38,789 bases of DNA, from contig JBILSS010000003.1 in NCBI GenBank assembly GCA_044371965.1, positions 1 through 38,789 on the forward strand, in the 5' to 3' direction. Below the pieces are notes generated by a model. That model saw only the letters and a list, made by a program, of their open reading frames with translations, was not told where the DNA came from and did not search any database. This DNA is from Vampirovibrionales bacterium (GTDB taxonomy: Bacteria > Cyanobacteriota > Vampirovibrionia > Vampirovibrionales > JAJTHC01). How positions within the stretch are numbered: position 1 is the stretch's first letter; the number at the start of each line of letters is the position of its first letter. Made by a program: the position numbers and the translations under genes. This document shows, piece by piece, positions 6,753-26,223 of this stretch.

Positions 6753-6958
6753 TACCATAAGACAATCGCCTCCCCTTCATTACTGGGAGCCTTCCAGTCA
6801 GGCAGGGTAATCTTCATCCCTTGCGTCAATTCAGCAGGGGCATTGGCAATCAAGGGATTCGCTTCAAGCACGGTTAAAACGGCATCCGTACTGCCGTAAT
6901 GCTGAAAGCAAATCAAGTCGATCGTGTCGCCGTCGTGCGACGTGTAAAGTACCGTCAT
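6752..6958 (-). CDS. P2 gpX-like LysM tail protein
   Basis: YTSHDGDTIDLICFQHYG...VLEANP...ITLPD. Confidence 0.92.
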   Translation of the reverse strand: MTVLYTSHDGDTIDLICFQHYGSTDAVLTVLEANPLIANAPAELTQGMKITLPDWKAPSNEGEAIVLW

Positions 6959-7374
6959 TATTTACCCTCCACTCGGCTTAATTCAAGCCTTACTTTGGTT
7001 TTGAGCAATTGACCCGAAAGCGTGTATTGATCGCCCGACTCGCCGATGCTTTGAATCACCCAATTACCGTGGTTCTTACCCATGCCGTCATAGAGGGGGG
7101 CAGGCTTGCCCGAAGCAGCCAAGGCATCTAGCTTAGCCAAATCCACGCCGTTGTCATTTTCACGACCCAACTCCGACCGCAAGCCCTTGGCAAACAATAC
7201 GGCATCAACGGCATAGGTTTCTAAGCCACGCCCCATGTACTGGTGAACGACACCTGCTCCTAGCGTGTCTTGGCTGGTGTATCGGTACGTTTTACTGCGG
7301 CTCATGGATTCAAGGGCAAGGGTGCTGATTGTAAACTGCACGTCGCCCAGTTGCATCATAATGTCTTGACTCAT
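6958..7374 (-). CDS. P2 gpU-like tail tube initiator
   Basis: MMQLGDVQF, QYMGRG and LYDGMGKNHGNWVI motifs. Confidence 0.88.
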   Translation of the reverse strand: MSQDIMMQLGDVQFTISTLALESMSRSKTYRYTSQDTLGAGVVHQYMGRGLETYAVDAVLFAKGLRSELGRENDNGVDLAKLDALAASGKPAPLYDGMGKNHGNWVIQSIGESGDQYTLSGQLLKTKVRLELSRVEGK

Positions 7375-7399
7375 GCGAAAAATCCCCTTTCATACCTTA

Positions 7400-7433
7400 A
7401 GTATAAAAGGGGACTGTCTTTATTTCTTGGGCA
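7400..7433 (-). promoter_or_regulatory. Putative late promoter, copy upstream of gpU
   Basis: TGCCCAAGAAA (7433-7423), 17 nt, TATACT (7405-7400). Confidence 0.65.
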
Positions 7434-7447
7434 TAAATCGTAAGGAT

Positions 7448-7804
7448 TTAGAACTTGGGGGTGAGTCCAAACTTCTCAATCGTCATGCGTTCAATGAGTT
7501 CACCGACGCTAACGCCTGCTTCTTTCGCTTGGAGCTTCAAGGTCGCTTTGACATCCGCAAATAAACGAGTCGTCAAGTTTTGACGACCTAAGGCAGGTCG
7601 CCCCACCTTTTGGTTCATGTAGTGATTGCCTTGTTCAAAGGCTTCCCATTGAGACGCAAGCATTACGCCAAAAATCTGTATGGCTTCTTCTTTCGTGTCG
7701 CCACAGCCAATATGCACATCCCACAAATCGCTTTCAGCGACAAAGCATTCGCCTTCTTCGTCCCACCGTGTTTTAAGGGTTTTTAAAATATCACTTTGTT
7801 TCAT
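7448..7804 (-). CDS. hicB: HicB-family antitoxin with C-terminal DNA-binding domain
   Basis: WDEEGECFVAE...GCGDTKEEAI HicB motif plus a GRP/ribbon-helix-helix-like tail. Confidence 0.8.
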   Translation of the reverse strand: MKQSDILKTLKTRWDEEGECFVAESDLWDVHIGCGDTKEEAIQIFGVMLASQWEAFEQGNHYMNQKVGRPALGRQNLTTRLFADVKATLKLQAKEAGVSVGELIERMTIEKFGLTPKF

Positions 7805-7818
7805 TATGAGTAGGTTCC

Positions 7819-8040
7819 TTATGGGTTATTCGCTAAAAAAGCGTGGCATGTTTTAAGAACTTTACGGTAATAAGGCATCTTCACCATGCCTCTTTTGGCA
7901 TTCTTGCCGTGAGTCGTGGCAAAGGCAGTCACCCAACGGTGTTTCCAATAGATTTGATAATGTCCGCTGGCGTCTTGTTTGACGGTGAAGCCGAGGGCTT
8001 CCAATTCGGCTTTCAGTTGCTTAAAGGTAAACTCGGGCAT
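7819..8040 (-). CDS. hicA: HicA-family toxin
   Basis: Small basic protein, LKAELEALGF...SGHYQI with the conserved His, upstream of hicB. Confidence 0.75.
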   Translation of the reverse strand: MPEFTFKQLKAELEALGFTVKQDASGHYQIYWKHRWVTAFATTHGKNAKRGMVKMPYYRKVLKTCHAFLANNP

Positions 8041-8071
8041 GGGCGGTCTTTCCTGTGCTGGATATGCTTTT

Positions 8072-8115
8072 AGTATAATTCATAATTAGGATATTGTCAA
8101 TACCTTAATTATGAA
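8072..8115 (-). promoter_or_regulatory. hicAB sigma70 promoter overlapped by a palindromic operator
   Basis: TTGACA (8100-8095), 17 nt, TATACT (8077-8072). Inverted repeat TTCATAATTA (8079-8088) / TAATTATGAA (8106-8115) with inner TATTG-T-CAATA. Confidence 0.75.
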
Positions 8116-8123
8116 ACACAAAC

Positions 8124-8150
8124 AAAAAGGGAGCCGATGAAGGCTCCCTT
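8124..8150 (-). terminator. Intrinsic terminator
   Basis: AAGGGAGCC-TTCATC-GGCTCCC followed by TTTTT on the minus strand. Confidence 0.75.
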
Positions 8151-8158
8151 GGGGTTGC

Positions 8159-8974
8159 TTAAGCCTTAGATGCTATTTCTAAGACTTTTTCAACTTCACT
8201 TAACCGCCTGTTCAAGTCTTCAAGCGTGACAGGCTTCTTCGCAGGAGGCTCTATTTCTTTATAGCCTTTAAAATCACACCATGCCGCTAGTGCAAAGAGT
8301 CTTAAATCTAAGGCATCGGTGTCTCTGCCTTGCTGATTCACCCAAAACCAACCACCCTCAAGCTTGATGTATTGTTGTGACGTTAAGGACGAAAAATAAG
8401 CGTCACTGTTCATCCCGTACCTGAAATGGAAGGGGTATACGTCCCTATTGTTCAAGAGCTTGTAAAAGAAAGACTTGATTCGGTCATGGCTTATAAAATA
8501 AAGCGGAGCCTCCTCACGCTCGTCCATATCGTTCAGCTCGTCGTTAGAAAAAGAGCTGACCAACGGATGTTCCCCATAAACGACTTTACACATCGACACG
8601 CTAGAATCGACATCCTTGTCTTGCACAAACGCTAAGACTTGGCGTGGCAAAAAGCCACTGTCGATAAACGTGCGACCAATCGGCATAGGCTTGCCGTCTT
8701 CATGTTGGTAGACCTTGTTCAAGCGTTGATACAAAATGTCCCATATGTTTTTATTCGTGGGGTCACCATGAATGGCACCCCAATCGATCGACCAGCTTTC
8801 AAAGCGTTCGCCCCAACCCACCACTTCATATTCCAAACGGTTTTTAAACACCGCCACGCCTGCGGTTAACGCCAGTACCCCTTTAGGCACTTCGGCGTTG
8901 TACACTTCTAAACAGGCTCTTAAGTCTTCAGGGCGGACTTGGGGTTTTGTTTCTAATACAGTCGGATTCATCAT
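8159..8974 (-). CDS. Stand-alone paralog of the TerL (GpA) C-terminal nuclease domain, catalytic Asp replaced by Ala
   Basis: Aligns by eye with the nuclease half of 17409-19400 (VPKGVL.LTAGV, RLEYEV.GWG, FIDSGFLPR, ALDLR) but reads AGVAVF instead of AGVDVQ. No ATPase domain. Confidence 0.85.
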   Translation of the reverse strand: MMNPTVLETKPQVRPEDLRACLEVYNAEVPKGVLALTAGVAVFKNRLEYEVVGWGERFESWSIDWGAIHGDPTNKNIWDILYQRLNKVYQHEDGKPMPIGRTFIDSGFLPRQVLAFVQDKDVDSSVSMCKVVYGEHPLVSSFSNDELNDMDEREEAPLYFISHDRIKSFFYKLLNNRDVYPFHFRYGMNSDAYFSSLTSQQYIKLEGGWFWVNQQGRDTDALDLRLFALAAWCDFKGYKEIEPPAKKPVTLEDLNRRLSEVEKVLEIASKA

Positions 8975-8978
8975 AACC

Positions 8979-9350
8979 TTAGTTTCCTTTATTCTTAGGG
9001 GTATTTAACTCTTTTAAGCGTGCTTCAAAAATCAGCTTCTTCCGCCACGCCCGATCTTCTTCGAGCTTCTTGGCTTCGGCTTCACGCTTTTTCACCAACT
9101 CCGCATGCGTGGCTTTGCGTTCCAAACGCTTCACCTTCTCATGCTTCATGGGTTCGGCTCCGTGCAGAATCTGTAGAATCTGCTTCTTTTGTTGCAGATT
9201 CAAACGGTATTCTTTCGGAAATTCATGCACCACAGACCCCCCTTGGGGGTAGGTCGTGGTGACACGAATGTAGCCGAAATGCACTTCATGTTGCCCCAAC
9301 AGTTCGTGAGGCATCTCACCGCCTGTGGCGGTGTAGAGGTCGTTATTCAT
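8979..9350 (-). CDS. Hypothetical phage protein, basic helical C-terminus
   Basis: Good SD (AAAAGGA), co-oriented and 4 nt upstream of the nuclease paralog. Confidence 0.65.
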   Translation of the reverse strand: MNNDLYTATGGEMPHELLGQHEVHFGYIRVTTTYPQGGSVVHEFPKEYRLNLQQKKQILQILHGAEPMKHEKVKRLERKATHAELVKKREAEAKKLEEDRAWRKKLIFEARLKELNTPKNKGN

Positions 9351-9403
9351 TTGACTTTTTTCCTTTTCTAGGGGAATTCACAACGTAAAAAAGGGCTTGG
9401 ATG

Positions 9404-9506
9404 TAGAAAACCCGAAAAGTCAACGGGCGATTTTGCCTTGCGACAGAATCCATCCAAACCCTAAAAATAGGTTTGTTTTTTGTAGTTGACTTTTGAGGGT
9501 TTTCTA
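9404..9506 (-). ncRNA. Candidate structured leader / small RNA
   Basis: Closing inverted repeat TAGAAAACCCGAAAAGTCAAC (9404-9424) / GTTGACTTTTGAGGGTTTTCTA (9485-9506) with inner short hairpins. It lies downstream of a TTGACT-17-TTTAAT promoter-like sequence. Confidence 0.4.
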
Positions 9507-9580
9507 AGCCCATGTGTTTATTAAAGCAAATGGGGCTAGAAAAGTCAAGCGGTTTTTTTGAACTCGTTTGTTCGGGGGAG

Positions 9581-11515
9581 CTACGCATATTCAGGCATGT
9601 CCGACATCGTGCCTTGTGTGGCATTCTTTGCCATATCCATAAAGGCGGTCAACTGCTGACGACTCGGCAGGCTTGCCACCTGCACCACGACCGTACCTCC
9701 GCCAGCACTCGCTTTTTTAGCAGGGCTTTGTCTCTTGGCAGGAGGCACAACATTGGGGTTATAATAGGGTGTGGATTCATCCCAAAAGGCATCCCCTGTC
9801 TTCGTGGATTTGGGCGTGTAAGATTTGACAAAGGTTTGAATGCCTTTCTTTTCTTTTTCCGTGGCAGGTCTTGTACCTGCTTTAATCACATTTGTCATTA
9901 AATCTAAGGCACCCGCCGTTAGGTCGGCGAGTTTGGATCCGATCGGATTAAGAGCGACTAACACTTGCGTACTAAACTTGTGCCAACTCGACCCCAGTCG
10001 CTGTGTACTCGCTTCACTGCTTTGGCTGATATTCTTAAAATCACGATCAATCGCCCCAGCGGAATCCTTGCTAGACTTTTCTTTAATGCGTTCGTACTCT
10101 TGCCAGTTCGACATCATAGGAATCAGGAAGTTCTTCACCTGTTGATCGCCAAACAAGGCACTCATCACCTTTAGATCTGTGCCGTTCTTCGTCATTTCAC
10201 GGATCTTCATCATAAAGGCTTCTAAGCCCGATTCGGCTTTGGGGAAGTATTTCTTCGGATTGGCGATTAAATCGACCACATCCACGCCTTTTTTACTGAA
10301 CTTGTTTAGCGTTTCAGTTGAATAAGCCTTAGACAGGAAGTTGAAGAGGTTGTTAGCCGCTTCTTCAGGTGTACCTGCTCCCTTTTTAGCGACTTGGAGC
10401 ATTGCCCCCACCGCAGGAAGGTTCTTTTGATCAAGGTTCATTACTTTAAACATAGCACCCAACTTCGGCATGAATTGAGCCATGTTGTTCAACTCAAAGC
10501 TTCCCAGCTTCCCTGCGGTGGAAAGCACATCTAGGGCTTTGCCTATGTCTTGAGGCTTAACGCCCATGTGAAGACTTAACGCCGTCGCCAGTTCCGCCAT
10601 ATCCAGCGGATCCGTCCCACTGCCCTTGCTTGCCTTCGCCAGCGTCGGCAACATCGCTAACGCCGTTTGAGTCTGTACACCGTTGGCAATCAACACCTGC
10701 AAGGCATCGATCAGTTGAGGCTCCTGCATCAGGCTCATGCTACTGGTGCGAAGCAAGGTATCGGAAATCGTGCCACGCATGGAATCACTAAATCCGCCTG
10801 TATTCTGCATCAAACGCAAGGCGGTGTCTTTACTGCGGTAGGCTTGCCCTTCGGCTCCGTTAAACATCCCCACCGCTCCGCCTGCTAAACCCAAGGCTCC
10901 CATCGTCGCCAAACCTGCCCCACCCCCAAAGAGGGTAGATGCCACCATGCCCGCACCGCCCATCATGGGGTTACCGCCAAGCAAAGTCGTCAGGGGCAAG
11001 GCACTGCTAATCGTTTCCCATTTTTTACCCCACTTGATTTTAGAGTCTAAACGAGTCCTCACTTCTATTTGAGACTTTAACACACTGGTGAGCTTTTCCT
11101 CATTGCGTGCCACATCTTTCGTGTAAAGCCCTTGCGACTTCAGTGAAGCCTTATAATGACGCATGGAGTTTCCTAAGACCTTATGCTGGCGTTCTTGGGT
11201 TTTCAAAAGCCTCGTATAATGTTCCATTTGGCTTGTGGCGGTGGCATCTAAACTGCCTGAATTCTTCAAAACCGTCTGAAACTCTTTAAGCTTGGTCTTG
11301 GTGGTGCCGATGCCTTTTTGAAGAGCGACCAAGTTATTCTTGGTTTTGTTAAAGCCTCCAAGGGTTTTAGCAGCACTGTCGGCAGCTTTAAACTGCTTAT
11401 TCAGCGAATCCACGCCTTTGGACGTGGCGTTCAACGCATTTTGAGCCGTCTTTAAGCCCTTTTCAAGACCGCTGGCATTGGCTTCTACTTCAAGAATCGC
11501 TCGCATTTTGGACAT
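9581..11515 (-). CDS. Tail tape measure protein
   Basis: Long A/G/K-rich helical protein with TP901-type core (AGKLGSFELNNMAQFMP, EEAANNLFNFLSK, LFGDQQ). The ATG at 11515 is preferred because the track's GTG at 11536 abuts the -10 box. Confidence 0.88.
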   Translation of the reverse strand: MSKMRAILEVEANASGLEKGLKTAQNALNATSKGVDSLNKQFKAADSAAKTLGGFNKTKNNLVALQKGIGTTKTKLKEFQTVLKNSGSLDATATSQMEHYTRLLKTQERQHKVLGNSMRHYKASLKSQGLYTKDVARNEEKLTSVLKSQIEVRTRLDSKIKWGKKWETISSALPLTTLLGGNPMMGGAGMVASTLFGGGAGLATMGALGLAGGAVGMFNGAEGQAYRSKDTALRLMQNTGGFSDSMRGTISDTLLRTSSMSLMQEPQLIDALQVLIANGVQTQTALAMLPTLAKASKGSGTDPLDMAELATALSLHMGVKPQDIGKALDVLSTAGKLGSFELNNMAQFMPKLGAMFKVMNLDQKNLPAVGAMLQVAKKGAGTPEEAANNLFNFLSKAYSTETLNKFSKKGVDVVDLIANPKKYFPKAESGLEAFMMKIREMTKNGTDLKVMSALFGDQQVKNFLIPMMSNWQEYERIKEKSSKDSAGAIDRDFKNISQSSEASTQRLGSSWHKFSTQVLVALNPIGSKLADLTAGALDLMTNVIKAGTRPATEKEKKGIQTFVKSYTPKSTKTGDAFWDESTPYYNPNVVPPAKRQSPAKKASAGGGTVVVQVASLPSRQQLTAFMDMAKNATQGTMSDMPEYA

Positions 11516-11537
11516 AAAACATTCCCTTCCAACCACC

Positions 11538-11571: not shown

Positions 11572-11637
11572 GAAACCGTCAAGATTTTATTAAATTGCAG
11601 AAATAAACTGCATCAAGTGTATTCATAATTCACCTTT

Positions 11638-12348
11638 CTATTTTTTGTACCCATTAGAGACGTAAACCAATTGTTCCAACTCACGATCTACAAAACTCTG
11701 CCATTCAAGAGAGGAATCTTTATCTCCTTTTTGTAGAAGGGTAATATACTCTTCTGGCGTAACGCAATCTTTTCTATTTTCTCTGTATGGATACCATGTT
11801 CTAGTGGGTCTCGGGTATTTCTTTACAAAAGCATCAAGGCACTTTCGCATTATGGTGAAACTTTGATACTGATTATAAGACGAGAGCATATTAAAAAAGG
11901 CTTCCTTTGCTCTAGCTTGTCGCTCTAAAAAAACCTCTAAAAACTCGTCATCACCTCTTTTGCAAGTGTATTGCCTGTATTGATCATGCTTAAGTAAGTA
12001 GCACAAGCTGTTTATGATAAGACCACCTTTTATATCTTTTAAAATATGCTTCGCAAAGCAGGATGCAGACGGAATCCACTCAAACTCAAAAGATTCAGGA
12101 TTTCCCCCATAATTAAAATGTTCTTTTAGGAAATCCGATATACGTTGATTCTCAATGTGTTTAATTCGTGAATTGAAAACGTCTAAAGATGGAATGCCTT
12201 CATGTAAAAAAGGCTCTCCATTTCGTTCTCTCTTTTTAAAATCTTGCCCCATCAATTCATTATAAATTCTAACGTACTCTTGATGAGTGGGTAAGTGGTC
12301 TAACATCTCAATAATTTTATCAAAATAACAGTGAGTTTCGTTAGGCAT
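11638..12348 (-). CDS. AT-rich hypothetical protein (moron)
   Basis: 236-aa ORF with SD AAGGAG and its own extended -10 (TGTTATAAT). Confidence 0.7.
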   Translation of the reverse strand: MPNETHCYFDKIIEMLDHLPTHQEYVRIYNELMGQDFKKRERNGEPFLHEGIPSLDVFNSRIKHIENQRISDFLKEHFNYGGNPESFEFEWIPSASCFAKHILKDIKGGLIINSLCYLLKHDQYRQYTCKRGDDEFLEVFLERQARAKEAFFNMLSSYNQYQSFTIMRKCLDAFVKKYPRPTRTWYPYRENRKDCVTPEEYITLLQKGDKDSSLEWQSFVDRELEQLVYVSNGYKK

Positions 12349-12385
12349 CGTACTCTCCTTTTTTCTAAATTATAACATCAAGTCT

Positions 12386-12409
12386 TTTTTTGCGGACGTC
12401 CGCAAAAAA
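12386..12409. promoter_or_regulatory. Perfect 24-bp palindrome (operator or terminator)
   Basis: TTTTTTGCGGAC|GTCCGCAAAAAA between the LuxR-type gene and the moron. Confidence 0.6.
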
Positions 12410-12417
12410 CGCTTTGT

Positions 12418-12987
12418 TTAAATAGCAGATTCAAGATCAATTTCTTCAATCCCAACCAAACCGTATTTGATCGCATAAAGGCAGGCTTGGGTGCGGTCGT
12501 TTACACCTATTTTTTTGTAGATGTGGGTTAAGTGGGTGTTAATCGTTTTAGGACTCAACACCAGCATTTCAGCAACGCTCTTTTTGTCATGCCCTTTGGC
12601 GACAAGCTTCAAGACTTCTAACTCACTCGCCCTTAAGTCGTCTAGCTTGCTGGGGCATGGATTTTCTGAAAGCATCCATAACAGGGTCAAGCCTCCATTA
12701 AGCGTGTCCGCCAAGTGGTAGAGGCTCATTTTTTCGTCGAAATAAACCGCTTGAACTTTAGAGCCTTTTTCTAAGCGGATCGGTAAGTCTTCGTACTCTA
12801 TCAATTTTTCGGTAAAAAACCCCAAAGTCCGAGGGGGGCTGGCGATATTTCTCACCAAACGAATGGAGACTTCTTCCTTTTGCTTATCCAGCAAGGCTTG
12901 GAAGTGGAACAGGTTGCCGTTAATGCCAACCGTTCCGTCGCCATGGCGATTCAACAGTTCTTTTAGATCTGAAATAGTCAGCTCCAT
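12418..12987 (-). CDS. LuxR/NarL-type HTH transcription factor without a receiver domain
   Basis: C-terminal ELEVLKLVAKG...LVLSPKTINTHLTHIYKKIGVNDRTQA. Confidence 0.85.
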   Translation of the reverse strand: MELTISDLKELLNRHGDGTVGINGNLFHFQALLDKQKEEVSIRLVRNIASPPRTLGFFTEKLIEYEDLPIRLEKGSKVQAVYFDEKMSLYHLADTLNGGLTLLWMLSENPCPSKLDDLRASELEVLKLVAKGHDKKSVAEMLVLSPKTINTHLTHIYKKIGVNDRTQACLYAIKYGLVGIEEIDLESAI

Positions 12988-12992
12988 AGGGC

Positions 12993-13478
12993 TTAGGCTC
13001 CCTCTGCTTTTTTGAGTTCAATTTCTTTTAAAAACTTTTGGGAAATCAGGCACGGCATAAAAAACCCAACGACTTCGCCATTAAAAGCAAAATAAATAGG
13101 TTTTAATCTGCTTTTTTGCCAAAAAGTAAACTCTACCAAGGACTTATTGGTAAACTCATTAAAAACATAAGAAGCAATATAAGATTCAATTTTGCCAATT
13201 TTTACTTTTACAAAATCCTTGTGAGTCTCTTCGGTTTTTTCAAGTTTGGAAAATTGGGTACAATCCAAATTTTCAAAATCTAAAATTAAAGGCTTTGTCT
13301 TTAGAGTAACCTTATTCTTAACAGTGGAACCCGTTATATCGACGAATCTTTTATTGACTGCAATAATTGCATTTGAATACAAGGTACGATCATTTAATTC
13401 CAACTCGTATAGATCTTTAAATTGAAAAAGACCGTTTCTTTTAATCTTAAATGTTTGTTTGACTTTTGCAATCTTCAT
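12993..13478 (-). CDS. Hypothetical phage protein
   Basis: AT-rich ORF translationally coupled in the accessory block. Confidence 0.65.
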   Translation of the reverse strand: MKIAKVKQTFKIKRNGLFQFKDLYELELNDRTLYSNAIIAVNKRFVDITGSTVKNKVTLKTKPLILDFENLDCTQFSKLEKTEETHKDFVKVKIGKIESYIASYVFNEFTNKSLVEFTFWQKSRLKPIYFAFNGEVVGFFMPCLISQKFLKEIELKKAEGA

Positions 13479-13666
13479 TAGTCACCTTCTTTCTTGCTTA
13501 CATCACGAATAAAATCATCAAAAGTTTTTTCAGCCTTTGGTAGCCCATATTTCAATATGCCTACGATTAGAGCAAAGGGCAGAATGGCCAATTGGATAAA
13601 CACCCAAAGCAAAACAAGAAAAAGCTTGAGGGTCACACGAATGATCATACGCAACATTTCCATCAC
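13478..13666 (-). CDS. Small membrane protein
   Basis: 62 aa with a long hydrophobic stretch, coupled on both sides. Confidence 0.6.
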   Translation of the reverse strand: MMEMLRMIIRVTLKLFLVLLWVFIQLAILPFALIVGILKYGLPKAEKTFDDFIRDVSKKEGD

Positions 13667-14058
13667 TCACCTTCTTTCTGTAGTTTCCACTCAATCAGAT
13701 ACCCCTCAAACGGCAAGTCGCCATATTGAGCCACAAAGAATGCCTTCATCTCTTCAAAGTCTTTGAAGCCGTCTTTTTTAGCCAACTTATTGAGTGTCTC
13801 ATAATTGGCAGAGGCGACCATTTTAAGGCAGTCTCCTTTAGTGGGGGAATACGTCCTGATGTGATTTTCAAAAATAAGAATCTGCGAGACTTTTTTCACA
13901 ACGGCTTCACCCAATTGACGACACGCCTTTGTACGTTGCCCTGTGTAGAGCTGGAGGGTATCCCCCACCTTAAAGCGGTTCGTCCGCCGTATCGTCTGCG
14001 TCTTCTTGCCTGTAGCGACGGCATCCGCAAATTGCTCTTTAAAATTGAGGGCTATCAT
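13663..14058 (-). CDS. ASCH-domain protein
   Basis: LNFKEQFADAVATGKKTQTIRR...GDTLQLYTGQRTK and LAKKDGF motifs. Confidence 0.88.
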   Translation of the reverse strand: MIALNFKEQFADAVATGKKTQTIRRTNRFKVGDTLQLYTGQRTKACRQLGEAVVKKVSQILIFENHIRTYSPTKGDCLKMVASANYETLNKLAKKDGFKDFEEMKAFFVAQYGDLPFEGYLIEWKLQKEGE

Positions 14059-14621
14059 GCGTCACCCTCCCAAACTTTAACAGATTCAAACAAACTAAAA
14101 TCACTAGGATTGAAAGGCTTGAAGGCTAAAATACTAAGGTCTTCGTGCCAATCTAGGGAATCCGCAACATCTCCACAGAACATTTCAATATGCCCGTGGT
14201 CTGCATTTACTAGATGATGTGTCGGTTTGGAATCACCCCGTTGAGCCATAACTAAAAAATAACCACATCTTTCAATTTCTTCTTCAAGATTTAGCTCAAG
14301 GGCATGAGCAAAGTCTAGCCAAGGATGCCGAGCTTCGTACATTGCCTCCATGGCTTCTTTAAAAGCCTCGCCAATGCGGACGTTGTCATCAAAATCACTA
14401 GTAAGCATGGGGAGTTCTTTATGGGCGATAATCTGATCACCACCTGTTTTGTAGTGATTACAACAAACCGCTATAAAGCAATTCGTATTAACAGGATAAC
14501 CCCGTGTGTCTTGCCGTTTCAATACTTTCAAATAAAGCGGATGTGAGTTATCATTCGATACATCAACTGCTTCAGGTGTCCACCCTTCAGGGAGTGTACA
14601 AGGTCTTTTGGCTTTAGTCAT
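14055..14621 (-). CDS. Hypothetical phage protein
   Basis: Coupled ORF (TAATG / ATGA overlaps). Confidence 0.65.
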   Translation of the reverse strand: MTKAKRPCTLPEGWTPEAVDVSNDNSHPLYLKVLKRQDTRGYPVNTNCFIAVCCNHYKTGGDQIIAHKELPMLTSDFDDNVRIGEAFKEAMEAMYEARHPWLDFAHALELNLEEEIERCGYFLVMAQRGDSKPTHHLVNADHGHIEMFCGDVADSLDWHEDLSILAFKPFNPSDFSLFESVKVWEGDA

Positions 14622-14950
14622 TATTCACCTGCTTTCTTGATTTCTGCTAATTCACAGTGTGCCAGTCCGAACTGGCGAAGAATAGAAGTGCGTCGTTTTC
14701 TTGCTTCCCACAACAAGTAATTTTTCCTAACCTCTGATCCTCCCTCCAGTGCTTCAACCGTTTGGATGTCTTCCTCTGCACTTTTAAGGGACTCTCTAAG
14801 GCGTTTTAACTCATCATAAGCCTCGTAAAGCTCCACATCCTTAGCTAGCTTGTCTAGGGTCTTCCCCTGTTTGTCTGAAAGGGTTTCAAGTTGCATTAAG
14901 TCGTAGATTTTACTTAAAGCGTCTTGGTAGCTTGCATCGTCTTTCATCAT
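14621..14950 (-). CDS. Hypothetical coiled-coil protein
   Basis: Coupled ORF. The N-terminus (YQDALSKIYDLM...LAKDVELYE) recalls the N-terminal part of HigA-like proteins (weak). Confidence 0.6.
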   Translation of the reverse strand: MMKDDASYQDALSKIYDLMQLETLSDKQGKTLDKLAKDVELYEAYDELKRLRESLKSAEEDIQTVEALEGGSEVRKNYLLWEARKRRTSILRQFGLAHCELAEIKKAGE

Positions 14951-15105
14951 GCGTCATCTTCTCCATATATTTGTTCTTGAAAGAATCCACCGCCCCCTGC
15001 GAGTTCTTTTTTAGAGTCGTCTAGGCTTTTGAAAGAGTGGATGCAATCCAGTAATAAATCGAGGCACTTAAGAAATAGGAGAATCGTTAAAAGCTTCTTA
15101 ATCAT
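14947..15105 (-). CDS. Small ORF, 52 aa (MIKKLLTILLFLKCLDLLLDCIHSFKSLDDSKKELAGGGGFFQEQIYGEDDA)
   Basis: Not in the ORF track. Manually translated; it fills the gap exactly and overlaps both neighbours. Confidence 0.55.
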   Translation of the reverse strand: MIKKLLTILLFLKCLDLLLDCIHSFKSLDDSKKELAGGGGFFQEQIYGEDDA

Positions 15106-15322
15106 GCGTCAATCTCTCTTTCTCATTCATATCAAATGGCTCATAGGGTATTTCTTTTCCCTGCCAACCGCCACGCTGAACACCATAGATGTTTTTATCA
15201 ACAGGGGTTCCGTCTAGCTTGACCCAACTTTCTCTTTCAAAAGTGCCAAATTCAGCATACGTGGCGTATGCCTTGATGTGCGAGCCATCGTCGAACGTCA
15301 ACCAAAAAAACTCTTTCATCAT
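15098..15322 (-). CDS. Hypothetical phage protein
   Basis: Coupled ORF with SD AGGTGA. Confidence 0.6.
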   Translation of the reverse strand: MMKEFFWLTFDDGSHIKAYATYAEFGTFERESWVKLDGTPVDKNIYGVQRGGWQGKEIPYEPFDMNEKERLTHD

Positions 15323-15645
15323 GCTTCACCTGCTTGCTTTTGGTAAGGCTTCAGCTTCCACTGACTTAAAATCAGCCTGAAAATATGGGCTGGTAATTCT
15401 TCAATAAGGGCTGAACCCTCAAATACCTCCACATCCCCTGAAATATCAGCAAAAAATAACCTCTCTTCATTAACATCCATTGCAGATAAGCGTCTTACAA
15501 CGACCTTAAGAGTTACATCAGGATTTGAGATATTTTGCAAATACACAGGCAAGCCTTTATCTCTTGATTTCCCAATTGTATTGTAGGTTTTTGAAAAATC
15601 GACGGACGTTTTCTCTTTAAAAAAATTATGCTTAAGATTCTTCAT
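15319..15645 (-). CDS. Hypothetical phage protein flanked by 17-bp direct repeats
   Basis: AAGCAGGTGAAGCATGA (minus strand) at 15319-15335 and 15642-15658. Confidence 0.65.
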   Translation of the reverse strand: MKNLKHNFFKEKTSVDFSKTYNTIGKSRDKGLPVYLQNISNPDVTLKVVVRRLSAMDVNEERLFFADISGDVEVFEGSALIEELPAHIFRLILSQWKLKPYQKQAGEA

Positions 15646-15659
15646 GCTTCACCTGCTTT

Positions 15660-15860
15660 CTAGTATGAAATCCAACCAAGTTGCTTAAATAGTTGAAGTG
15701 TATTTGCAAACCAATTCAACAGTAAAAGTAGGGAAACCCCCGAATTAAAAACAGCCAATCCGTAGAGTCCTTCCTTGTACTGCTCTATACTTAGGCTGTG
15801 GAAGACAAACATCCCAACTAGGGCGAAAAGTATACAAATACACTGCACAAATACTTCCAC
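15660..15860 (-). CDS. Small two-TM membrane protein
   Basis: Strong SD GGAGGT before a GTG start; two hydrophobic segments. Confidence 0.6.
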   Translation of the reverse strand: MEVFVQCICILFALVGMFVFHSLSIEQYKEGLYGLAVFNSGVSLLLLLNWFANTLQLFKQLGWISY

Positions 15861-15874
15861 TATTTACCTCCAAA

Positions 15875-15896
15875 CCCTCCCCAAGAAAGGGGAGGG
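15875..15896. terminator. GC-rich hairpin
   Basis: CCCTCCCC-AAGAAA-GGGGAGGG perfect 8-bp stem with only short T tracts. Confidence 0.45.
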
Positions 15897-15912
15897 GCTT
15901 TATATACTGTAA

Positions 15913-16746
15913 CTAGCTCTTAGCGGTGTAGTTCTTCACAATCAACAGAGGCTTTTCGATAAACTGTTCCGTGATGTAATCCGCTTCATCTTGAAGCAAC
16001 AGGTCTTTGGTGATGTTCAATTCAGGAATAGAGACGGAAAACTTCCAATCACGAGACCCTTGATTGTTCGCAACACCTGTCGCATCAATCACCGCTTCAA
16101 ACGAGTAGGTTTCTTCGCTTCCACGCACCAAAGGCATGGTCAAATCAAAGGAAAATGGCAAGTTCACATCCGATTCAGCATTGGTGTTTTTGATTTTCAC
16201 CTTCATGCTGGCGGAAGCAGCACCTGATCCATCTTGGGTGATGTCAGGAGCCGAGACAAAGGCATTGTCGTCTGAAATGGTGATTGTTGACCACTGACGG
16301 TAGAAGTCATTAAACCCTTCGATACTGGGGCGGAGCGTACGCAACTTCTTAATAAATTGAGCGTGAGCCAGTGGCTTTTCGTCCAATAAATCAAGCAAGG
16401 TCACCCATTGTTGACTTTTGCAACGTTCATAACGCACGAACTTGTGGCGATTTCCATGCGTAAAGTCAGGGTAGAAAGTCGCCCCTTCATCATCTAAGGC
16501 GATTTCAAAAAGCTTATGAGCCTCTTCTTCGCTATTCGCAATCAAGTGTTTGATGATGTCTTTAAGCGATTCAATCGTGCTGACGTTCCGCACCTGTGGG
16601 TTAGGCGTGGGGGCATCAGGAGCCACTTCTTTGTACTCAAAGGACTCGTCGTCTTTCTCAAGTAAAAAGTGACGTGTCTTGTCAATCGTGATCACTTCAG
16701 GCATTTTCGGGGTCAACTTTTCCAATAAGGAATCAATCATGTTCAT
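15913..16746 (-). CDS. Phage protein, probably YfdQ/DUF2303-like
   Basis: Size, V.TIESL.D, S.QW..L and LPFSFDLTMP patterns, and pairing with the upstream 116-aa ORF. Confidence 0.5.
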   Translation of the reverse strand: MNMIDSLLEKLTPKMPEVITIDKTRHFLLEKDDESFEYKEVAPDAPTPNPQVRNVSTIESLKDIIKHLIANSEEEAHKLFEIALDDEGATFYPDFTHGNRHKFVRYERCKSQQWVTLLDLLDEKPLAHAQFIKKLRTLRPSIEGFNDFYRQWSTITISDDNAFVSAPDITQDGSGAASASMKVKIKNTNAESDVNLPFSFDLTMPLVRGSEETYSFEAVIDATGVANNQGSRDWKFSVSIPELNITKDLLLQDEADYITEQFIEKPLLIVKNYTAKS

Positions 16747-17156: not shown

Positions 17157-17422
17157 AGTGATTCCTCCTTATTTTCCATTAACAACGGATTCTCAATCAA
17201 ATCCGACTTACCTATAACAAACAAAACATTCGTGCCTGCACACTGCTTGTAATGAGCGTTCACACGCTCCCACATTTCAGGCGACAACGTCCAACCATAC
17301 TTATTCAAAACACCCACCAACCCACGAGGGGACTGGGCAAAGTGAGAACCACCCAAAGGGGCTTGCACTTCAAAGCAAGGGGGGTCTTTGTGATACGTCC
17401 TTGCCATATTAACGACCTCCAT
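17153..17422 (-). CDS. Hypothetical phage protein
   Basis: ORF overlapping the TerL stop. The second Met follows a GGAGGT SD and is the likelier start. Confidence 0.55.
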   Translation of the reverse strand: MEVVNMARTYHKDPPCFEVQAPLGGSHFAQSPRGLVGVLNKYGWTLSPEMWERVNAHYKQCAGTNVLFVIGKSDLIENPLLMENKEESL

Positions 17423-19400
17423 ACGTCAAGCGGCGTGACCGCTTCTTTTTCTTAATTTCTACTTTATCTAAAATTACCTCCTCTTTCTTGGGCATTTTTC
17501 GTAAGTTTTCTTTTGAATTTTCTGCAGTCATTTCCTCTAATTTCTTCAATACGTTCCTGTATTCCTCTTTTCCTGCATCGTCCGAAATTCCTGCAATACT
17601 TTCCTGTATTTCTCTTTTTTCTTGAGATATCCTATTGATTTTAGATTCCAATTTACGGGCGATTCTATGCCAGTTGGGATCCAAGTTATGACACGCAGCG
17701 AGAGCATAGACCCTTAAATCCAACGCTTCGTTCCGCTTGCCCCCTTGATTGACCCATTCATAGCGAATGCCTGCCTTGGTGTCCTTCTTTACACGCTTTT
17801 CAGCGGTCAATTGGGCGAAATAGTTCTCGTTATTCATGCCGTCTTTAAAGTGGCAGTAGCCAGCCCCGACTTCATCCATGGTCAAGTAGCTATAAACGTG
17901 CATCTTGGCTTCATCCACACCGATCATGTAAAGGGGGACGGTTCGCTGTTCACGATCGCTACGCTTCTTCTGTTGAGGTTTTTCCACCAATGGGTAAGAA
18001 CCACCACGCCCTTTAGAAGCAGAAACACCCGAACTTGCCCCTTTTTTCGCCACAAAGTCATACACGGCACGAGGTAAGAATCCTGAATCGATAAAGGCAC
18101 GAGCAATCGTCATTTTCAAACCGCTGTCATGCGTGTAACGCTTAGTAAGGATCTCATCCAAGGCTTGCCACGTTTCTTGATGCAAGGGGTTTCCATAAAT
18201 CACACCCCAATCCACCGACCAGCTTTCGTAGCCCATGCCCCAACCGATGACCTCGTATTCCAAACGGTCTTTCTGCACATCCACGCCTGCGGTTAAAATC
18301 AACACGCCCTTCGGTACGTCCGCCGTGTAGACTTCTAAACGCTTCATAAGCCCTTCGGGTTCCACCGATTCGCCCACGTCCGACCACGGCAAGCCTAGCG
18401 TCGTGTTTTGAAAAGTTTTTTGTCCTTGAATGCCTCTAGTCATTGCCTCGTGAAAAGTAACCGATATATCTTTCCAACTTATAAAAGGGCTGAGAAAACC
18501 CGGAACATGAAAACTACGAATATCGGTGACTTCGGGGTTTTGAGCCACAAACTCGCCCCCCATCGCCTTCCAGTCGTACTCATCGTGAAAGGAGCCACAG
18601 GCAGGACACGCCATTTGATAGGTGTCACAATCAAAACGGTCAAACTCAAAGACGCTCGACTCGCCACAACTCGGGCAAGGGGTCATCCATAGTTCTTGGC
18701 TCCCTAGCAGGTATTCTGCCTTAATGCGACTGGTCGTGGCATCTGTGGGAGTACTGGTATTGACCTCCTTAAAATCCCAGTAACTATTTCCACGTTGACG
18801 AGCCAAGAGCATCGGGTCACCTTCGCCGTCCACATCCAAAGCATATCGGTCACATTCATCCATTAAAAGCAAGCCAACACTATTCATGGCTAAATCACCA
18901 CTGGCTTGCGTCCCTGCCATCTTTAAAAATCCACTAGGAAACTGAATATGAGTAAGTGAATTTTCAGTTTGAGTGCCTCTCAAGGTTCCTGTCAAGGCGA
19001 GTAAGCCTTCATTCCCTTCAATAAAAGGACGCATTTTATTTTTCACAAACTCTTTGCAAAGCCCGATATTGGGTTGAATAAACAAGATAGGTCGTGGGCG
19101 TTCTTTCATGTAGTAGCCGACCGCACATTGCTGAATGAGTGTTTTACCGATTTGTGAGCCTGACATCACGGCAATCCGTCTCACCTTAATGTCTGAAATC
19201 GCATCTAGTATGGGAGCTTGATAAGGAGCCGTCTCACGACTCCACCGCCCCGACAAAGACGTATTGGTGGGCAACTTGATGTTCTGCTCCGTCCAATCAC
19301 TCAAGTTCATCGTCAAAGGGGGTAAAAATTGACTCATCATCTTCTGAAAGAACTGCATCGTGTGATTCGGTATTTCCGCCCAGTTCGTCGTTAAAGTCAT
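17409..19400 (-). CDS. Terminase large subunit, lambda GpA family
   Basis: TAPYQ, Walker A SGSQIGKT, Walker B LLLMDECD, STPT, two CPxCG motifs, nuclease AGVDVQ / IDSG / NEALD. Confidence 0.96.
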   Translation of the reverse strand: MTLTTNWAEIPNHTMQFFQKMMSQFLPPLTMNLSDWTEQNIKLPTNTSLSGRWSRETAPYQAPILDAISDIKVRRIAVMSGSQIGKTLIQQCAVGYYMKERPRPILFIQPNIGLCKEFVKNKMRPFIEGNEGLLALTGTLRGTQTENSLTHIQFPSGFLKMAGTQASGDLAMNSVGLLLMDECDRYALDVDGEGDPMLLARQRGNSYWDFKEVNTSTPTDATTSRIKAEYLLGSQELWMTPCPSCGESSVFEFDRFDCDTYQMACPACGSFHDEYDWKAMGGEFVAQNPEVTDIRSFHVPGFLSPFISWKDISVTFHEAMTRGIQGQKTFQNTTLGLPWSDVGESVEPEGLMKRLEVYTADVPKGVLILTAGVDVQKDRLEYEVIGWGMGYESWSVDWGVIYGNPLHQETWQALDEILTKRYTHDSGLKMTIARAFIDSGFLPRAVYDFVAKKGASSGVSASKGRGGSYPLVEKPQQKKRSDREQRTVPLYMIGVDEAKMHVYSYLTMDEVGAGYCHFKDGMNNENYFAQLTAEKRVKKDTKAGIRYEWVNQGGKRNEALDLRVYALAACHNLDPNWHRIARKLESKINRISQEKREIQESIAGISDDAGKEEYRNVLKKLEEMTAENSKENLRKMPKKEEVILDKVEIKKKKRSRRLTYGGR
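17461..17494 (-). promoter_or_regulatory. Putative late promoter embedded in the TerL 3' end
   Basis: TTACGAAAAA-TGCCCAAGAAA (core 17494-17484), 17 nt, TAAAGT (17466-17461). Confidence 0.55.
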
Positions 19401-19944
19401 AGGTCATTTCCTTTTTCAAATCTAGGTTAGTAATTTCTTGTAAGGCTTCATCAATGGCTTGAATGGCTTTTTCGCAAAGTTCTGCTTCACTTTTGCACCT
19501 GAACCACAAGGGGGCTTTCGTGAAGGGTAAGGCTCTCAAACGCCCGACGGCAGTCTTAATCACTGTGGAAAGAAACTTATTGAGATGTCTCTCATGGTGA
19601 AGTTCCCCACGCTGTTTGGCGACTTTCAGCTCCTTCATTTCCGCCGTCGCTTTGATGTCACGGGTTTTGTAGTCTTCCGCCACAGGGTTGGCTTTGCCTG
19701 TCATCTTCCCACGCATCCACACAATGTAGTCAGTGACGCTCGTACTGGCATAAAGCCCCGTGCTAAGGCGTGTAATCACGCCTTTTTCAGCGGATTCCTG
19801 AACGTTCCTCGTCGTACACGCAAAGATCCGTGCCAAGGCATCCACCGTAAACCCCTTCAGTTCTGAAGACGGCACACCTTCAAGCTTCAACTGGCTCGCT
19901 TCTTCCTGATTTTCCAAACCGTACAAATCGGTCACATCTTCCAT
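19297..19944 (-). CDS. Terminase small subunit (Nu1-like)
   Basis: N-terminal wHTH (LARIFACTTRNVQE...GVI), coiled coil AEMKELKVAKQRGEL, and overlap with TerL. Confidence 0.85.
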   Translation of the reverse strand: MEDVTDLYGLENQEEASQLKLEGVPSSELKGFTVDALARIFACTTRNVQESAEKGVITRLSTGLYASTSVTDYIVWMRGKMTGKANPVAEDYKTRDIKATAEMKELKVAKQRGELHHERHLNKFLSTVIKTAVGRLRALPFTKAPLWFRCKSEAELCEKAIQAIDEALQEITNLDLKKEMTYDFNDELGGNTESHDAVLSEDDESIFTPFDDELE

Positions 19945-24425: not shown

Positions 24426-24579
24426 CCGCTCTATTCAACGGATGCCATTTGCTGGTTGAGGTGAAACAGGGCTTCGTTGTAATTTTATCAAAACGTTCAC
24501 TTTGAAATAATTGAGTTGACCTAGCTTTCATTGTAGAATTATGTTAAACATTCTATTCAATATCATTCGTGAGGTACAA

Positions 24580-26223
24580 ATGACGCATTTCAACTTGTCT
24601 TGTCCTAAGCCAAATGGTGAGGAGGCTCTAGAAATCTCTTTAGCCCTTGGCAACATTCTTTTTGTCTTGGGTGCGAATGGTACAGGAAAATCGGCTTTTT
24701 TAACTCATATAAATACAAAATTTACTCATGTCAAACGTATTCTTGCCCACCGCCAACTAGCGTTGGAAGATAATGGTATTGACTTACGCTCTACTCACAT
24801 GAATAACTATAAAATAAATATAGATCAGTTTAATAGGACTCCCGAAGCTCGGTGTAGTCCCAGATATTTAAGAGAAGTACCTCAAATGATATTATCGGAC
24901 TTAATAAGTATTAACAACCAATACAATCAAAGTATTATAGAGGCAATTAAAGCAGGTGAGGTCGTAGAAAATATCTTATCACCTCTTGATAAACTCAACA
25001 ATCTTTTACAATTATCGAACTTAGAAATTTCGATCACTACTGATTTAAACAAATTCTACGCTTCTAAAAACTCTAGTCCTCGTTACAGTATTGTAAATCT
25101 TTCAGATGCCGAAAAAAGTGCACTCTCCTTAATATCGGAAGTTTTAACTGTTCCGCCAAATACTTTAATTCTGATTGATGAACCAGAACGACATTTTCAT
25201 AGGTCGATTATTTCCCCCTTAATTACACAACTTCTACAGGAAAGAGACGATTGTGCCTTTGTTGTGGCAACCCATGACATAAACTTACCTATGGACAATC
25301 CAAACGCAAACGTTTTATTAATAAGAAGTTGCGAGTGGAAAAATGAAGGTAATTCGTGTTTTTGGGACGCTGATCTTTTAGAATCAAAGGATGAGATTGA
25401 TGATAAATTAAAACAAGACATTTTAGGTTCACGTCGAAACTTACTTTTTGTTGAGGGAGAGACTCAAAGCCTAGATTATCAACTTTACAAAATTTTATTC
25501 CCAGACGTATCGGTTATTCCTAAGGGAGATTGTCGAAATGTTCAAGCCGCTGTAAAAAGCCTTAGAGAGAATGAATCTGTTCATTGGGTAAAAGCTTATG
25601 GAATTATCGATGCGGATGACCACGATGAATCTGACCTTGAGAGTCTAAAAAATGATTATATCTACGCATTACCATGCTATGCAATAGAATCCATTTATTT
25701 TAGTCCTGAAGTTTTAGAAGAAATGGCTAACAGAGTCGCAAGCCATAAAGACGTTTGCCGAGAAGAACTCCTAGAAAATACCCAAAAAGCAATCCTAGAT
25801 AAAATGGGACAACGCAAAGAACATTTATGTAGTTATTTATGCGAACGTATAATAAGAAAACAAATAAAAGATCCTGAACGACCAAAGCGAGATCAAATTT
25901 TAGGGAAAGGAACATTCAAGCCTTATGAGGGTCTTGAATTCCAACAAGAAATAGACTTGGATGCTTTTCTTGAGACAGAAATGGGAATCTTTGAATCTCT
26001 TTTAACACAAACAGATACTCAAACACTTATATTTCGGTATCCAGTTAAAAAGTCAGGCGTTATGGGTGCCGTTGCAAAGGCTTTAGAATTTAGAAATACG
26101 GAAGACTATATGGCTGGTTTCCGAAAAATGATGATGGATAATAATGAGTTCCGTAATAAGTTTATCGAACTTCATTTTAGTGAGTTAAGTCGAGAGATTC
26201 AAGCTACTGAAACAATGGTATAA
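24580..26223 (+). CDS. ABC-ATPase (AAA_21) fused to a TOPRIM/DUF4435-like domain; PARIS-fused or OLD-like defence protein
   Basis: Walker A GANGTGKS, signature LSDAEK, Walker B ILIDEPERHFH, H-loop VATHD, TOPRIM FVEG and IDAD. AT-rich. The ATG at 24580 follows GAGGT. Confidence 0.8.
   Translation: MTHFNLSCPKPNGEEALEISLALGNILFVLGANGTGKSAFLTHINTKFTHVKRILAHRQLALEDNGIDLRSTHMNNYKINIDQFNRTPEARCSPRYLREVPQMILSDLISINNQYNQSIIEAIKAGEVVENILSPLDKLNNLLQLSNLEISITTDLNKFYASKNSSPRYSIVNLSDAEKSALSLISEVLTVPPNTLILIDEPERHFHRSIISPLITQLLQERDDCAFVVATHDINLPMDNPNANVLLIRSCEWKNEGNSCFWDADLLESKDEIDDKLKQDILGSRRNLLFVEGETQSLDYQLYKILFPDVSVIPKGDCRNVQAAVKSLRENESVHWVKAYGIIDADDHDESDLESLKNDYIYALPCYAIESIYFSPEVLEEMANRVASHKDVCREELLENTQKAILDKMGQRKEHLCSYLCERIIRKQIKDPERPKRDQILGKGTFKPYEGLEFQQEIDLDAFLETEMGIFESLLTQTDTQTLIFRYPVKKSGVMGAVAKALEFRNTEDYMAGFRKMMMDNNEFRNKFIELHFSELSREIQATETMV

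Follow-up and report, generated by a model that had tools for sequence, protein, structure and literature searches.

Contig JBILSS010000003.1 of a Vampirovibrionales bacterium (assembly GCA_044371965.1) carries, among the tail genes of a prophage, a gene for a stand-alone copy of the nuclease domain of a phage large terminase, and the same prophage encodes a full-length enzyme of that type. The stretch analysed, referred to here as the window, is this one entire contig of 38,789 nucleotides (C93) from a parent genome (G000) of 2.05 Mb in 202 contigs. Its full-length large terminase subunit (TerL; 17409-19400, minus strand) is a GpA-type protein of 663 amino acids with an ATPase domain (PF05876), a nuclease domain (PF20454) and residues D374, D438 and D561 intact. 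The stand-alone gene (8159-8974, minus strand), called the solo gene below, specifies a GpA-type terminase nuclease domain of 271 amino acids in which the catalytic aspartate has become alanine (A41), as recognized by Pfam, BLASTP and a structural model. The protein matches the Pfam GpA_nuclease family PF20454 with an expectation value (E) of 9.5e-37 and 127.2 bits (cut-off 22.5) over model positions 58-287 of 294, as well as phrog_15, terminase large subunit, at E = 3.8e-39, and BLASTP aligns it with residues 346-569 of the window TerL with 107 identities in 225 positions (48%, E = 8e-63).

A first-pass annotation of this DNA had described the open reading frame (ORF) as a copy of only the nuclease half of the element's own TerL, and the analysis bears this out: PF20454 is the only one of the two TerL domains present, Pfam detecting no ATPase domain (PF05876) in the solo protein, and the 16-mer listed as shared between the two genes is found at 8854 and 18281 and nowhere else in the window. 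No remnant of a TerL ATPase is found upstream of the solo gene in any of six frames, and the open frame reaches only 10 codons above the ATG (a 281-amino-acid open frame), ahead of which stands an AAGG resembling a ribosome-binding site. At the other end the solo protein lacks the last ~65 residues of TerL together with their basic tip; after the fold it continues for ~40 residues, and TerL for ~95 more up to KKKKRSRRLTYGGR. The coiled-coil tail that the earlier annotation had described as a gain stands in part: a helix is predicted at residues 251-270, with a predicted local distance difference test score (pLDDT) below 50, but it aligns loosely with the start of the C-terminal helical extension of TerL and so is not evidently new.

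Aligning and modelling the domains, as had been suggested, gave a confident answer. The AF2 model of the solo protein, built from an 89-row alignment, has a pLDDT of 85.8 and a predicted template modelling score (pTM) of 0.83, with the nuclease fold at residues ~8-240 and a tail (243-271) modelled at low confidence. In VIA-align the top 34 entries were all terminase nuclease domains (Z 11.2-13.8; root-mean-square deviation 3.1-5.1 A; 168-193 residues aligned), behind which ranked RuvC and IS621 structures (Z <= 8.9); the predicted structure can confidently be assigned an RNase H/RuvC-like terminase nuclease fold. That the region is real DNA is shown by an independent metagenome run, five contigs of which, overlapping or nearly abutting, span 7300-9625; the stretch with the solo gene also turns up in runs from 16 lake and freshwater studies.

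The codon for A41 (8852-8854, minus strand) is GCG where TerL has GAT for Asp374 (18279-18281), in the column of lambda gpA D401, and two codons further on TTT (Phe43) stands where TerL has the CAG of a family-invariant glutamine. The replacement of AGVDVQ by AGVAVF had been read correctly from the raw sequence, and the alignment agrees with the equivalence drawn between this column and lambda gpA D401. Lambda gpA residues D401, D465, E586 and D589 align with solo A41, D105, D220 and D223, so that the solo active site, with A41/D105/D223 at the D401/D465/D589 columns, is without a full acidic triad. The first-pass annotation had also called lambda gpA D401 necessary for cos cleavage, a statement not found in the literature searched; the D401 named in the available text of PMC3074133 is a residue of T4 gp17, in which a triad for two-metal catalysis, D401/E458/D542, includes the strand-1 aspartate.

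When 317 proteins and the solo query were aligned with hmmalign, all 311 other GpA-nuclease homologues covering the first catalytic column had aspartate there, and alanine occurred only in the solo query and in two full-length, near-identical members of its cluster (P0001 and P0046). The arrangement appears to be rare, this lineage alone lacking the aspartate among the 311 homologues inspected. Short proteins matching only GpA_nuclease (for example P0008, P0023-25 and P0040) were considered as further solo copies and rejected, as they keep the aspartate and have TerL-like ends; they were taken as split or truncated TerL calls.

The changes extend well beyond the active site. Of 71 columns that are at least 80% conserved among 118 TerLs, 25 are altered in the solo protein, compared with 6 in the resident TerL. 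Invariant columns altered in the solo protein are D41A, Q43F, G130K, E200Q, E220D and Y227F, while D105, D223, K167, R46, E48 and E50 are kept; the motifs KGxGG, GxGYCHFP and RNE have dissolved, and LTAGV, RLEYEVVGWG, ESWS, FIDSG and ALDLR are retained. Basic segments have been replaced as first reported (SKGRGG by CKVVYG, and KPQQKKRSDREQR of TerL by SFSNDELNDMDEREE of the solo protein). The net charge of the solo nuclease domain, -9, is the lowest of 119 domains (family mean -0.1, standard deviation 2.8).

As to where the gene came from, the nearest full-length TerLs among 5.8 billion clustered proteins are the resident TerL and two close relatives at 47-48% identity, the next standing at 39% and the others at 37% or less. 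A maximum-likelihood tree of 33 nuclease domains groups the solo protein with the clade of the resident TerL (support 95/86); its branch is 2.51 changes per site long, those of the TerLs in the clade 0.01-0.12, and the placement of so long a branch is uncertain. Some synonymous similarity persists over aligned codons 1-90: where the residues agree, the codon is shared in 28 of 46 cases, whereas codon usage predicts 16.3 (z 3.75). The other 128 aligned codons are saturated (16 of 54 the same, 20.3 expected). Only one related prophage was found, in the complete genome of a member of the same genus (G009). At sites separating the two TerLs, the solo gene agrees with its own TerL and with that of G009 in 8 versus 6 cases within codons 1-90 and in 8 versus 14 over the rest; being no closer to the one than to the other, it points to a split that predates the divergence of the two phages. 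To judge from its sequence, the solo gene is a paralogue that arose from the resident GpA-type TerL lineage and comprises the nuclease domain alone.

The solo gene follows an upstream partner, ORF123 (8979-9350, minus strand; 123 amino acids), the existence of which had been recorded at the outset and whose stop lies 4 nucleotides before the solo ATG. No family was found for ORF123 in Pfam, PHROG, PADLOC or NCBIfam, but it belongs to a cluster of 65%-identical relatives in which core residues 21-78 are invariant, and this core marks it as a real gene. A long basic helix with a net charge of +9 makes up the C-terminal half; the model of the protein (pLDDT 62.4, pTM 0.26) is too poor for a fold search, and an Atlas search with it returned no usable match. 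Loci of its relatives (P0318-P0324) were sought in 49 genomes of the order and in genome, viral and metagenome contigs, and none was found. Prediction of a complex between the solo protein and ORF123 scored 0.06 against a mark of 0.32, a result counted neither for nor against binding. PADLOC defence models gave no family for either protein at E <= 0.01.

Eight nucleotides past the solo stop, a hairpin of 9 pairs (6 of them G-C) followed by a run of T's resembles an intrinsic terminator (8127-8150, minus strand); the terminator claimed for this position was called by the scanner. The promoter claimed at the other end (9520-9548, minus strand), read by eye ~170 nucleotides upstream of ORF123, fared less well: the TTGACT-17-TTTAAT motif is present but weak, with T at position 2 of the -10 hexamer, and was not called. 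An independent transcription unit is on this basis plausible only, the terminator speaking for it and the promoter being weak. Two minus-strand copies of the 10-mer TTGACTTTTC, at 9548-9539 and 9423-9414 and thus 125 nucleotides apart, lie in the 230 nucleotides that separate ORF123 from the stop of the tape measure gene; the pair may possibly represent regulator sites or two weak -35 boxes. The solo gene is co-oriented within the late tail operon. Contigs of three RNA libraries include one of 151 nucleotides, at depth 94, that spans the junction of ORF123 and the solo gene (8933-9076), and two short ones that cover the hicAB genes downstream (7528-7885); since such libraries may contain DNA, these contigs are no proof of a transcript and expression of the solo gene is only hinted at.

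The next unit downstream is a pair of minus-strand genes resembling hicA (7819-8040, 73 amino acids) and hicB (7448-7804, 118 amino acids, with a C-terminus like that of ribbon-helix-helix proteins), for which the Pfam matches fall below gathering scores. A near-consensus promoter, TTGACA-17-TATACT (8100-8072, minus strand; 11 of 12 positions), precedes the pair. A scan of the solo protein, ORF123 and the HicAB-like pair against NCBIfam gave no match, nor did a sequence search of TerL and the HicA-like and HicB-like proteins against the PDB.

Comparison with G009 defines a variable cargo slot between tape measure and gpU (7448-9580, minus strand), filled in the window by ORF123, the solo gene and the HicA/HicB-like pair. 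In G009 the slot (L004 11020-11450) measures ~400 bp and is occupied by another small ORF, rich in AT; this ORF follows a remaining ~52 nucleotides of the 3' end of ORF123, including the stop and the ribosome-binding region, and a remnant of the 3' end of hicB also survives. From these remnants it follows that the cassette predates the split of the two phages and that the gene behind ORF123 has been exchanged or lost. A prophage without the cassette implies, in turn, that the solo gene is dispensable for the phage and that the slot exchanges its cargo. With one relative available, the solo gene appears to be an accessory, moron-type cargo gene that varies at a fixed slot; a search of viral contigs based on gpU for more related phages found none.

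Outside this prophage, only near-identical solo copies were seen, all from freshwater metagenomes. Nothing but the solo protein itself matches at E <= 1e-30 among 1.84 billion representative proteins. Across 401 genomes from the class, all other matches lie in frames of 618-684 amino acids, except one at a contig edge and one 357-amino-acid copy, the latter in a genome with five copies. Of 50,697 phage records, 218 match the solo protein, and a second matching place exists in just one of the 218.

We regard as the best explanation, with a probability of roughly 0.55, that the solo gene is a lineage-specific accessory copy of the TerL nuclease domain whose product is a folded, non-cutting pseudo-nuclease kept by selection. 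Its main competitor, a serious one though the less probable of the two, is a decaying relic: illegitimate recombination between related phages would have deposited a TerL fragment in the cargo slot, where, without function any longer, it has been drifting and is not yet broken. Confinement to one nearly clonal lineage and loss from the sister prophage are what a relic would predict, as are a branch ~20 times longer than those of its TerL relatives, the alteration of six family-invariant residues and 25 of 71 conserved columns, and a ratio of nonsynonymous to synonymous divergence (dN/dS, or omega) far above that of TerL. Against it stand several features of the gene itself. The frame is, as the first-pass annotation had stressed, intact despite the divergence, with 271 codons, no stops and the AAGG ahead of the ATG; in a neutral simulation of a TerL fragment (4000 copies, substitutions only, with indels left out) 0.13% of copies were stop-free at 48% residue identity and 1.1% at 65%. 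Relative to the resident-clade consensus, the solo protein has changed at 22 of 65 family-conserved columns and at 99 of 153 others (Fisher 4.8e-5), the columns on which the fold depends being relatively spared, and the bias is strongest in the N-terminal half (4 of 32 conserved columns, 33 of 66 others). Around the active site, in a stretch of 39 nucleotides, all synonymous positions are the same as in TerL, yet D41A took two base changes (GAT to GCG) and Q43F three (CAG to TTT), so that multi-base changes fall exactly on the two active-site codons; one further base differs (AAC/GAC, N versus D), and the stretch was picked after inspection and has no probability attached. The confident fold model, and a position 4 nucleotides behind a partner gene of a strongly conserved family, are likewise unexpected of a relic. 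The stop-free frame, the spared columns, the active-site codon changes and the fold together argue against pure drift, and there are signs that the solo gene is not a random relic and that selection for the fold continued.

Several observations weigh on the other side. No solo orthologue differing by more than one residue (A20S) was found, the 'shorter' length class having been left out of the search, in the 5.8 billion clustered proteins, in JGI metagenome and IMG/VR contigs or in the 401 class genomes, and with no diverged orthologue long-term retention is not demonstrable; the first-pass annotation had itself named an absence of homologues as telling against its proposal, and formally that absence is what was found. 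The sister prophage lost the cassette and lives without the solo gene. In the C-terminal half, 18 of 33 conserved columns have changed, which also fits decay. Three-taxon estimates over codons 1-90 give the solo branch an omega of ~0.4-0.6, a strong relaxation from the ~0.03 of TerL; these estimates are rough because dS is saturated across two thirds of the gene, and the whole-gene pairwise dN/dS of 0.45-0.48 over 1.7-2.4, with dS saturated, was used as a bound only. The contrast between the two gene parts in codon agreement may mean that the solo gene is a mosaic, or has been partly homogenised by gene conversion, and not that it has had a single history. As regards expression, the promoter motif is weak, promoter-like sites in the region are no commoner than in shuffled sequences (7 versus 5.3 +/- 2.5), and one short contig, whose RNA library may contain DNA, is all that speaks for a transcript. 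A20S, present also in protein P0001, was the only population variant in one independent DNA run. The codon concerned differs at two bases, window positions 8915 and 8917 (GCC to TCG), while the remaining ~2.3 kb covered by the contigs of that run show no difference.

If the solo gene is indeed a pseudo-nuclease kept by selection, its history may be pictured as follows. The nuclease domain alone would have been copied from the phage's own GpA-type TerL lineage, and the copy would then have evolved very fast, losing the first metal-binding aspartate along with the greater part of the conserved active-site and DNA-groove motifs, and becoming strongly acidic, while retaining the residues that build the RNase H/RuvC-like fold. 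The protein would probably be co-expressed with the small basic ORF123, transcription being stopped by the terminator behind the solo gene. By what is known of RNase H-like terminase nucleases, such a protein should neither cut DNA nor bind it well. Without the first metal-binding aspartate, the basic groove segments, an ATPase and the C-terminal tip of TerL, protein binding is the role that remains, and the solo protein would presumably act by protein-protein contacts and not on DNA. The most likely route, which we put forward tentatively, would be the formation of non-productive complexes with a large terminase or another packaging component, the effect of which would be to hamper the packaging of a related competing phage or to restrain the phage's own terminase. 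It is conceivable, if doubtful, that the acidic non-cutting mimic poisons the terminase holoenzymes of related superinfecting phages, as a packaging-step exclusion, or that it disables the resident terminase during lysogeny as a safeguard against cos cleavage, with ORF123 as partner or regulator and the second cassette gene exchangeable.

The first-pass annotation had offered, beside such a dominant-negative inhibitor, a decoy for terminase-sensing defences; either function is speculative. As a decoy the protein would soak up or blunt, during lytic growth, a host immunity sensor of the Avs1-3-like STAND type or Upx. It has the terminase nuclease fold and, co-oriented in the late tail operon, could be made alongside TerL; moreover, the available text of PMC13601566 describes KpAvs2 as activatable by some nuclease domains and SeAvs3 as binding the nuclease domain in its native conformation. 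The same text weakens the idea, because EcAvs2 responds to the ATPase domain and scarcely to nuclease domains, and SeAvs3 recognizes active-site residues and bound ATP, and the solo protein has neither an ATPase domain nor the catalytic aspartate. A binder of the sensor would also be expected to trigger rather than to block it, and no decoy derived from TerL was met with in the literature searched, including the available portions of PMC11564622 and PMC13581612; we hold the decoy to be quite improbable. Least probable is a still-active nuclease, for example an accessory DNase or homing-type enzyme using D105, D223, E48 and E50: it has in its favour that two of the three triad positions are intact and that several conserved acidic residues survive, but the first aspartate is alanine, which cannot bind metal and stands where all 311 other homologues have aspartate, the corresponding T4 gp17 residue is part of a catalytic triad (PMC3074133, in the text available), the basic DNA-groove segments are now acidic with a net charge of -9, and the KGxGG, GYCHFP and RNE motifs are lost.

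The prophage that carries the solo gene occupies the window from position 1 to ~22,800, with every gene on the minus strand, and chromosomal genes begin at ~23.3 kb. Read from right to left, it encodes a replication protein, a late activator, the small terminase subunit TerS (19297-19944, minus strand), TerL and conserved ORFs of 116 and 277 amino acids with no assigned function, after which come low-GC (guanine-plus-cytosine) cargo at 11.6-15.9 kb, the tape measure (9581-11536, minus strand), the region with the solo gene, gpU (6958-7374, minus strand) and gpD; downstream of gpD lie the baseplate genes V, W, J and I plus fibre genes. Portal, capsid, sheath and tube are not between TerL and tape measure, and a headless, defective element was considered and dropped, for these genes lie elsewhere: in G009 a lambda-family portal, a protease-capsid fusion, sheath and tube come after the fibre and lysis genes, and the G000 portal, with 91% identity to that of G009, is on a separate contig (C84). 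Fifteen genes compared between the two prophages have dS of 0.16-1.09 and omega of 0.055-0.20. With the head genes located and omega in this range, the prophage is complete, temperate, myovirus-like and under purifying selection, with an unusual module order. Between TerS and TerL on one side and the genes for portal, protease-capsid fusion, sheath and tube on the other stand those for tape measure, baseplate, fibre and lysis and a D12 methyltransferase gene (window 1-22800 and C84; L004 and L005 in G009).

Just upstream of gpU, a hairpin (CCCCTTT...AAAGGGG) with T's at 7385-7440 (minus strand) is conserved in G009; both phages thus have a terminator-like element ahead of the remaining tail genes, which implies antitermination or a promoter further downstream. 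A second variable cargo stretch (11608-15913, GC 0.37-0.43), between the conserved 277-amino-acid ORF and the tape measure, includes a GerE/LuxR-type regulator (12418-12987), an ASCH/DUF3850 protein (13663-14058) and several family-less ORFs; G009 has an unrelated 1.2 kb at this place. Just outside the prophage, on the plus strand (24541-26223), a 560-amino-acid ATPase-Toprim protein matches the PADLOC model of a fused PARIS AriAB at E = 1.4e-68. This gene lies in a low-GC patch (0.36-0.41) and adjoins a helicase-like ORF of 814 amino acids (26225-28669), an ORF of 372 amino acids and a DNA methyltransferase (29684-30796), with which it possibly forms a small defence island. An Rfam scan of the window gave no match.

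Set against known systems, the solo protein shares with the GpA-type TerL nuclease (PF20454; the C-terminal half of lambda gpA) sequence homology, fold, D105 and D223, and differs from it in having no ATPase and no C-terminal basic tip, in the alanine at the first aspartate, in the 25 of 71 changed columns and in its acidity; its gene, unlike that of a GpA-type TerL, sits in a cargo slot among tail genes and not beside TerS. In lambda gpA the C-terminal extension with the basic tip has a role in prohead and portal binding. Separately made C-terminal terminase products are known as UL15.5 of herpes simplex virus 1 (HSV-1) and as internal-start products of T4 gp17; these too are nuclease-domain polypeptides apart from the full-length motor, but they are in-frame products with unchanged sequence and active site, whereas the solo protein comes from a separate, diverged paralogous gene without the catalytic aspartate. 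Packaging-interference proteins that bind TerS or capsid proteins are encoded by satellites: Ppi of Staphylococcus aureus pathogenicity islands (SaPI), Rpp of phage-inducible chromosomal islands (PICI) and Sid and Psu of P4. With these small accessory proteins, which divert or prevent the packaging of a phage, are satellite-encoded and are not homologous, the solo protein would share at most an analogous mode of action. Like moron genes, it is flanked by conserved late genes, is followed by a terminator, may have a promoter of its own, adjoins a toxin-antitoxin-like pair and is missing or replaced in the closest relative; it departs from them in that what is carried duplicates one of the phage's core genes and is not foreign, with a GC content of 0.45-0.48 like that of the phage.

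In the literature searched, no terminase nuclease paralogue was described that is both separately encoded and catalytically disabled. The terminase is the most conserved enzyme of tailed phages and a target of both host immunity and satellite interference. Confinement of the solo gene to one lineage limits its interest, and even if it is only a decaying fragment it documents the duplication of a core phage gene into a cargo slot. If it is kept by selection, it would represent a new kind of phage pseudoenzyme, a separate and catalytically disabled half of the terminase, and would offer a ready-made probe for the nuclease-domain surfaces that mediate terminase assembly; and should it prove to poison packaging, the terminase would for the first time have given rise to an inhibitor of packaging.

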